Below are positions 58,641 through 58,850 of a stretch of DNA of 64,000 nucleotides, piece after piece. The stretch is from the NCBI RefSeq assembly GCF_054482595.1, contig NZ_CM137008.1. One strand, given 5' to 3'. The position numbers were made by a program, and so were the translations under genes. How positions within the stretch are numbered: the stretch's first letter is position 1; every line of letters starts with the position of its first letter. The notes under the pieces were generated by a model. It worked only from the letters and a program-made list of their open reading frames with translations. It did not search any database and was not told the origin of the DNA.

Positions 58641-58850
58641 TGCCGCACGTAGGCCTGATAAGACGCGGACAGCGTCGCATCAGGCATCGTGTGCAAATGT
58701 CGGATGCGGCGTGAACGCCTTATCCGACCTACAAAAAAAATTTATCAATGAGTTAGAAATCCCTTTAGGCCTGATAAGACGCGCCAGCGTCGCATCAGGC
58801 ATCGTGTGCGAATGTCGGATGCGGCGAAAACGCCTTATCTGATCTACAGA
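58641..58850. repeat. REP/BIME cluster (at least four REP units) between yacG and mutT
   Basis: Repeated gtaggcctgataagacgcg...gcgtcgcatcaggca and gtcggatgcggcg(t/a)gaacgccttatc units; the last unit overlaps the mutT stop codon. Confidence 0.75.

Follow-up and report, generated by a model that had tools for sequence, protein, structure and literature searches.

An atypical BIME in the yacG-mutT gap of Escherichia coli whose last REP tail overlaps the mutT stop codon

The yacG-mutT gap and its REP units

The REP cluster described here lies in the E. coli neighbourhood coaE-zapD-yacG / mutT-secA, within a 64-kb stretch of DNA that was analysed as a whole and that we refer to as the window. Over 901 bp surrounding the site, the sequence is 100% identical to that of E. 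coli XH990 and approximately 99% identical to those of K-12, BL21, and J53. The two flanking genes, yacG and mutT, form a convergent pair, and the 214-bp gap between them is filled by a BIME. Translation of the minus strand gives a MutT protein ending in ...AKLKRL, followed by TAG, with R89S (codon 89, in the region of 58969) as its sole amino-acid difference from the K-12 protein. The same REP layout is found between yacG and mutT in K-12, whose RefSeq record lists no repeat features in this gap. The features of the locus are the following:

58432-58629, plus strand: yacG (DNA gyrase inhibitor), from its open reading frame, an NCBIfam YacG equivalog match of 130 bits, and the RefSeq annotation on identical DNA
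58627-58629, plus strand: yacG stop codon, TGA
58634-58648: degenerate, partial REP-head remnant, TGTCTGATGCCGCACG, whose arms (I15/I16) pair with the heads of REPa and REPc
58649-58685, plus strand: REPa, z2 type, with GTAG tail at 58649-58652; 36/37 matches to the z2 consensus
58652-58729, minus strand: module 1 (z2+y), full-length match to Rfam naRNA4 (RF02564), 77.4 bits against a gathering score of 59.5
58686-58698: head-to-head linker of 13 nt, ATCGTGTGCAAAT, recurring at 58801-58813 within the direct repeat D1
58699-58732, minus strand: REPb, y type, with CTAC at 58729-58732 on the plus strand (GTAG on the minus strand); 32/35 matches to the y consensus
58733-58764: tail-to-tail linker of 32 nt, A/T-rich with an A-tract, with an IHF consensus match, TATCAATGAGTTA, at 58743-58755
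58765-58800, plus strand: REPc, z2 type, with a degenerate TTAG tail; 35/37 matches to the z2 consensus
58768-58844, minus strand: module 2 (z2+y), full-length match to Rfam naRNA4, 71.8 bits against a gathering score of 59.5
58801-58813: head-to-head linker of 13 nt, ATCGTGTGCGAAT, from the sequence and the repeat finder
58814-58847, minus strand: REPd, y type, with stem at 58814-58843 and CTAC tail at 58844-58847; 30/35 matches to the y consensus
58844-59233, minus strand: mutT (8-oxo-dGTP diphosphatase), 129 aa, from its open reading frame and an NCBIfam MutT equivalog match of 245 bits

The initial annotation, made from the sequence alone, had reported at least four REP-like units in about 210 bp. 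Four units are indeed present in 199 bp (58649-58847), in the order z2-y-z2-y and in alternating orientations, with consensus matches ranging from 30/35 to 36/37. This count agrees across three approaches, namely the reading of the sequence, a repeat finder, and a regular expression for the REP core; the y and z2 consensus sequences are those listed in PMC11208160. The strict core pattern would be expected by chance 0.02 times per 64 kb, and a looser expression finds five units across the window, four of them in the yacG-mutT gap. The repeat finder marks imperfect palindromes in the cluster (inverted repeats I6, I8, and I13), which measure 30-40 nt and have a mismatch bubble inside the stem, and the GTAG/CTAC tetranucleotide stands at the hairpin foot of REPa, REPb, and REPd, its place being taken by TTAG in REPc. 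As for abundance, a 901-bp query containing the cluster has matches at 17 places in the median E. coli genome. The REP-head remnant, a possible fifth unit, begins 5 nt past the yacG stop codon. Other strains show a different fusion at this site, TCTGATGCGACGCTG joined to GCCTGATAAG, and these differences suggest that a further z2 unit recombined or was truncated in the past.

The terminal unit had also been said to run through the mutT stop codon, and the coordinates bear this out. The CTAC tail of REPd includes CTA at 58844-58846, of which the mutT TAG is the reverse complement, and position 58847, the G of GTAG, is the wobble base of the Leu129 codon. Since the stem of REPd ends at 58843 and its tail occupies 58844-58847, the overlap amounts to 4 nt and involves the tail only. 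Counted as a stem-loop alone, REPd would end 1 nt short of the stop; we count it as overlapping because the standard definition of a REP includes the tetranucleotide, GTAG being needed for binding and cleavage by TnpA_REP and hence an integral part of the REP (PMC3333891). With the tail counted, indexing does not place the end of the unit before the mutT stop. The broader statement that a REP element makes up the 3' end of mutT holds for the stop codon and one wobble base, which lie in the tail, and is overstated for the rest: the REP stems are extragenic, and the REPd tail enters mutT by 4 nt, or by 13 nt in the 132-aa allele described below. That the TAG of a GTAG REP tail can serve as the stop of a flanking ORF was described by Di Nocera et al. 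in 2013 (PMC3733652), and the mutT case is one instance of these stop-donating REPs, with nothing essential to set it apart.

Modules, linkers, and predicted hairpins

The cluster is organized as two direct repeats of approximately 115 bp (D1), 92% identical, in each of which a z2 and a y unit flank a head-to-head linker of 13 nt. This 115-bp repeat is a result of the repeat finder; Tandem Repeats Finder reported nothing on the cluster. Between the two modules, the match TATCAATGAGTTA in the tail-to-tail linker fits the IHF consensus WATCAANNNNTTR. Taken by itself, such a match counts for little, the 64-kb window having 8 sites where 2.5 are expected. However, the homologous arrays of other Escherichia species show the consensus in each of their tail-to-tail linkers, and it is also kept in the strongly diverged linker of strain JNE070796. 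The tail-to-tail linker is single copy per genome at blastn sensitivity and was found in 1870 of the 5,426 E. coli genomes searched.

BIME-2 elements combine y and z2 units with short head-to-head linkers, and their copy number varies at one and the same locus (PMC3333891). The yacG-mutT element resembles the atypical BIMEs and BIME-2 of Bachellier and Hofnung, as they are presented in Ton-Hoang et al. 2012 (PMC3333891), in the inverse alternation of y and z2 units. It shares with them the short head-to-head linkers, the tandem modules, and a number of copies that differs from strain to strain at one locus. However, BIME-2 linkers (s, l, or r) carry no IHF site, whereas the tail-to-tail linker here holds a site of the WATCAANNNNTTR type, like the L linker of BIME-1, which makes the element a BIME-1/BIME-2 chimera; in addition, one of its REP tails overlaps a coding sequence, by 4 nt. 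Given this IHF-type linker added to y+z2 modules, the element is an "atypical" BIME by the definition of PMC3333891.

The likeness to BIME-1 (RIP/RIB), in which a y unit, an L linker with an IHF site, and a z1 unit follow one another, lies in the tail-to-tail arrangement of a y and a z unit around an IHF consensus. The yacG-mutT element differs from it in its z2 partner, its tandem multi-copy modules, and its locus-specific linker. Membership in BIME-1 was considered and rejected: the linker is single copy per genome, and hence is not the multi-copy L motif, and instead of a z1 partner and a single-copy organization, we find z2 units and two modules.

A canonical BIME-1/RIP does occur elsewhere in the window, at 31606-31706, between the convergent ORFs 29159-31567 (plus strand) and 31769-33358 (minus strand). 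It consists of a y REP, GCCGGATGCGGCGCGAACGCCTTATCCAGCCTAC, an IHF consensus match, AATCAATGGATTG (31652-31664), and a z1 REP that holds an exact IS621 target at 31675-31685.

For the prediction of RNA structure, each REP unit was folded separately, since the fold of the whole 251-nt 3' region pairs the REPs with each other and is uninformative on local hairpins. REPa, REPb, and REPc are predicted to form strong hairpins from both strands, with energies of -19 to -28 kcal/mol and z-scores of -3.9 to -6.6 (REPa, -25.7/-27.6 kcal/mol, z -5.3/-6.6; REPb, -18.8/-19.2 kcal/mol, z about -5; REPc, about -21.5 kcal/mol). REPd would reach -15.4 kcal/mol as plus-strand RNA, using G·U pairs. In the sense of the mutT mRNA, it retains a 4-bp top helix only (-10.7 kcal/mol, z -1.1), with its first stable pair at +10 from the stop. 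This weakness is explained by two C-to-T changes (CTGATC instead of the consensus CCGACC), which place C·A mismatches in the mRNA-sense stem. In K-12 and in one-module strains, the stop-proximal hairpin is intact, with its foot at +1 from the mutT stop, and the 58-nt segment from the stop codon folds with -18 to -24 kcal/mol, a value that includes a second downstream helix. With REPd thus degraded on the mRNA strand of this strain, any barrier on the mutT mRNA here would need to be formed by REPc, REPb, and REPa. A scan for promoters and terminators found no promoter, no terminator-like site, and no hairpin followed by a T-run inside the REP cluster; the two terminator-like sites that it returned are both within mutT.

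Variation among strains and related genera

For population counts, 5,426 complete E. coli genomes were searched with allele-specific 40-mers, and representative loci were compared alongside. At least two modules, recognized by the K-12-type inter-module linker, are present in 1870 genomes (34.5%), the remaining ones having mostly one-module forms or a divergent two-module form. The REP copy number, whose comparison across strains had been recommended, is thus variable at this site, and a module number between 1 and 5 at yacG-mutT agrees with the view of REP clusters as hotspots of rearrangement.

A length variation of the MutT C-terminus between strains, which had been suggested as a further check, also exists, in the form of a 129-aa and a 132-aa allele. 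The first one (...CTG TAG, with the stop within the REP tail) is carried by 3164 genomes (1789+1375; 58%). In the second one (...GTG TAT GTC GGA TAA, the protein ending in KRVYVG), found in 1663 genomes (726+937; 31%) including O157:H7, Nissle 1917, and the type strain, the tail no longer contains TAG and the stop lies three codons further on, at the in-frame TAA of the y REP stem, which every y REP carries. The final codons of this allele, Tyr-Val-Gly, and its new stop are drawn from the tail and stem sequence of the REP. About 11% of the genomes have other, unclassified haplotypes, the window's own among them.

Insertion sequences reach the cluster as well, as had been anticipated for REPs in general. 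The sequence ATCAGGCCTAC is a natural target of IS621 located in REPs (PMC11208160), and an exact copy of this 11-nt target, with its CT core, lies in the tail of REPa (58649-58659, minus strand), where it is empty in the window. In strains 1EC213 and YC21-F17 (locus L003, positions 1226-2510, and locus L089), IS621, of the IS110 family, is inserted between yacG and mutT. The junction in the first of these loci reads ...GCACGTAG, IS621, AGGCCTGATAAG..., that is, GTAG, IS, AGGCC, which puts the insertion point within the tail of REPa, at the CT core of ATCAGGCCTAC. This locus-specific junction occurs in 188 of the 5,426 complete genomes (3.5%), many of them O26 or O103 STEC. Some 900 further genomes match only the IS621-end portion of the junction query, at other sites, and hence carry IS621 elsewhere.

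Beyond E. coli, we compared the locus in 80 species, a set from which E. fergusonii is absent. The five species that represent Escherichia (E. albertii, E. whittamii, and three others) all share the same layout, with 1-5 modules and a period of 115-116 bp. The largest arrays, in E. albertii and Escherichia sp. E1V33, have five tandem modules, amounting to 10 REPs and 4 IHF consensus sites in a gap of about 560 bp. In all five representatives, MutT is 129 aa long and the stop at codon 130 is directly followed by GTCGGATAAGGCG, from which we infer that 129 aa is the ancestral MutT length in Escherichia and that the REP at the stop is older than the genus.

The tail of MutT past ...PVIxKL is hypervariable across the Enterobacteriaceae, the proteins measuring 129-135 aa, and the sequence that adjoins the stop differs between genera. 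In Enterobacter and Leclercia, whose mutT-yacG gap measures only about 34 nt, the mutT TAG is directly followed by the z1-like palindrome GCCTGCTAAGCGAAGCGCCAGCAGGC. Most Citrobacter species have a y-like REP 7-8 nt past the mutT stop; in one Citrobacter locus (L029), the mutT stop is the TAG of the REP tail, and in another (L032), it is the TAA inside the stem (GCC GGA TAA). Five Kosakonia loci present a non-REP hairpin, CTGGCGCAGCG-TTAA-GCGGTGCGCCAG, with the mutT stop in the loop and the last four mutT codons as its 5' arm. This Kosakonia case makes the hairpin on the mutT stop seem a family-wide theme that is independent of REPs. Nearly every enterobacterial genus shows some hairpin, REP or not, on or adjoining the mutT stop, according to a best-hairpin scan of 79 species that is noisy, often picks alternative helices, and is used here only qualitatively.

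Typically, TAG accounts for about 8% of stop codons. Among the 79 species whose mutT stop was counted, it is used in 24, roughly four times the typical usage (binomial p=7e-9 against the assumed 8%, a value that ignores shared ancestry).

Proposed role of the element and competing explanations

Taken together, we consider it very probable that the yacG-mutT element is an ordinary E. coli atypical BIME that fills a convergent gap and acts as a bidirectional hairpin block. A terminator or stabilizer of this kind, working at the 3' ends of both genes, is its most likely role. According to this proposal, the element would be transcribed as the 3' UTR of mutT and, on the opposite strand, as the 3' UTR of yacG, and its REP hairpins would end read-through transcription and halt 3'-exonucleases arriving from both directions. 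REPs between convergent genes have been described as bidirectional terminators or degradation blocks (bioRxiv 10.64898/2026.03.23.713779). At the DNA level, the element may offer putative IHF and gyrase sites, the y units of BIME-2 being known as gyrase sites (PMC6379681). Changes in copy number would likely arise when the 115-bp direct repeats recombine, with TnpA_REP as a further possibility; recombination between modules and TnpA_REP are the two routes to which BIME copy-number change has been attributed (PMC3333891). The overlap with the stop would be a by-product of a REP lodged right at the end of mutT: once the tail TAG mutates, the next in-frame stop would be the stem TAA, and MutT would become longer by 3 aa. 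Against the proposal stand the terminator scan, which found no hairpin with a T-run behind it in the element, the weak mRNA-sense hairpin of REPd, and the small weight of an IHF match taken by itself.

The strongest competitor of this proposal, to which we give an appreciable but minor share of probability, regards the BIME as neutral selfish DNA, a passenger tolerated in a permissive convergent gap, with neither the overlap nor the copy number having a phenotype. The looseness of the locus speaks for it, since it has admitted 1-5 modules, an IS621 insertion, and the loss of a stop, with the flanking genes kept throughout; the hypervariable C-terminal tail of MutT (129-135 aa) in the Enterobacteriaceae fits with it too. 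However, a mere passenger would hardly account for the retention of at least one y+z2 pair beside the mutT stop in every Escherichia lineage examined, for the persistence of the IHF consensus of the linker although its flanks diverge, or for a hairpin of some kind at or beside the mutT stop in nearly every enterobacterial genus.

A second explanation gives the overlap a function in translation. REPs located less than 16 nt from a stop codon down-regulate translation by ribosome stalling, as reported by Liang, Rudd and Deutscher (2015) and cited in PMC12306157. Accordingly, a stop-proximal REP at mutT would stall ribosomes before termination, leading to cleavage of the mRNA, rescue by tmRNA, and a lowered MutT output. 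The distance is the appropriate one, with the mutT stop within the REPd tail and the stem foot 1 nt beyond; the intact hairpin at +1 in K-12 and one-module strains and the conservation of a stop-adjacent REP throughout Escherichia point in the same direction. What is shared with the REPs of Liang et al., as far as PMC12306157 presents them, is a position within 15 nt of the stop; the difference is that the mutT hairpin of this strain has lost strength as mRNA (-10.7 kcal/mol, z -1.1, 4 bp), where a stable mRNA-strand hairpin would be needed. Furthermore, the 132-aa allele shifts the stop into the stem at no obvious cost in about 31% of the genomes. Since the mRNA-sense hairpin is weak in this strain, we regard such a damping of translation as a secondary and rather doubtful possibility.

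It could also be argued that the stop was not donated by the REP, and that an ancestral mutT already ended in ...G-TAG when the BIME inserted at this sequence or merely came to lie beside it, the TAG being the older of the two. MutT most often measures 129 aa in genera without a REP at this place too (Kosakonia and Buttiauxella, for example), and Escherichia keeps its stop at codon 130 even in loci whose tail has become TTAA (L009 and L011). Against this, REP-free genera mostly have TAA at the mutT stop, many of the TAGs found in 24 of the 79 species adjoin a REP-like palindrome (gTAG followed by GCC... or GTC...), and GTAG is a required, integral part of the REP (PMC3333891). This order of events therefore appears unlikely to us.

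A more far-reaching idea is that the mutT stop has been captured repeatedly and independently by GTAG-tailed palindromes, and that this placement is selected to tune the translation of the antimutator through ribosome stalling. The palindromes at the stop do belong to different classes, being y REPs in Escherichia, z1-like in Enterobacter and Leclercia, and y-like in Citrobacter. If this idea were true, REP decay, module number, and the switch between 129 and 132 aa would be heritable dials on the MutT level, which would in turn set the rate of A:T to C:G mutation; we hold it to be quite improbable.

Least probable of all is that the z2+y modules give rise to RNAs that bind HU and condense DNA, a role proposed for REP325, for even though both modules are full-length matches to naRNA4 above the gathering score on the minus strand, the Rfam model recognizes essentially any BIME-2 unit and a nucleoid role involving HU is made unlikely by the 2026 preprint (bioRxiv 10.64898/2026.03.23.713779). 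The basis of that model is the set of y+z2 modules in REP325 (RF02564; Qian et al. 2015, PMC4550694). The yacG-mutT element contains the same module above the Rfam threshold, with two modules rather than six and at a different locus.

Returning to the bidirectional hairpin block, the feature is real and already known in kind, each of its components having been published previously: the REP/BIME classes, the IHF site of BIME linkers, GTAG-tail stops, stop-proximal REPs, copy-number polymorphism, and IS621 targeting. What the analysis adds is small and leaves this category unchanged, namely a count of the 129/132-aa polymorphism and the observation that palindromes recur on the mutT stop in different genera. 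A literature search combining mutT, yacG, and REP returned nothing, neither of these two additions was found stated, and the supplements of PMC12306157 and PMC3333891 contain nothing on the mutT-yacG locus.

The importance of the case is slight beyond annotation hygiene, where it illustrates that "extragenic" REPs can extend into coding sequence. A REP in this orientation brings two in-frame stops, the TAG of its tail and the TAA of its stem, and with them a common 129/132-aa polymorphism of MutT. The yacG-mutT gap is also a natural polymorphic landing site for IS621, a bridge-RNA recombinase. If the stop-proximal REP did set MutT levels, a mobile repeat would be tied to the control of the mutation rate.

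At the other end of mutT, a minus-strand match to the Salmonella sRNA candidate STnc40 of Rfam (59248-59317; 81.7 bits against a gathering score of 45) extends from the final 25 nt of secA into the secA-mutT gap. It includes a GC-rich hairpin with flanking A/T runs, located between the secA stop and the mutT start, which looks like a bidirectional terminator that mutT transcription would have to read through.
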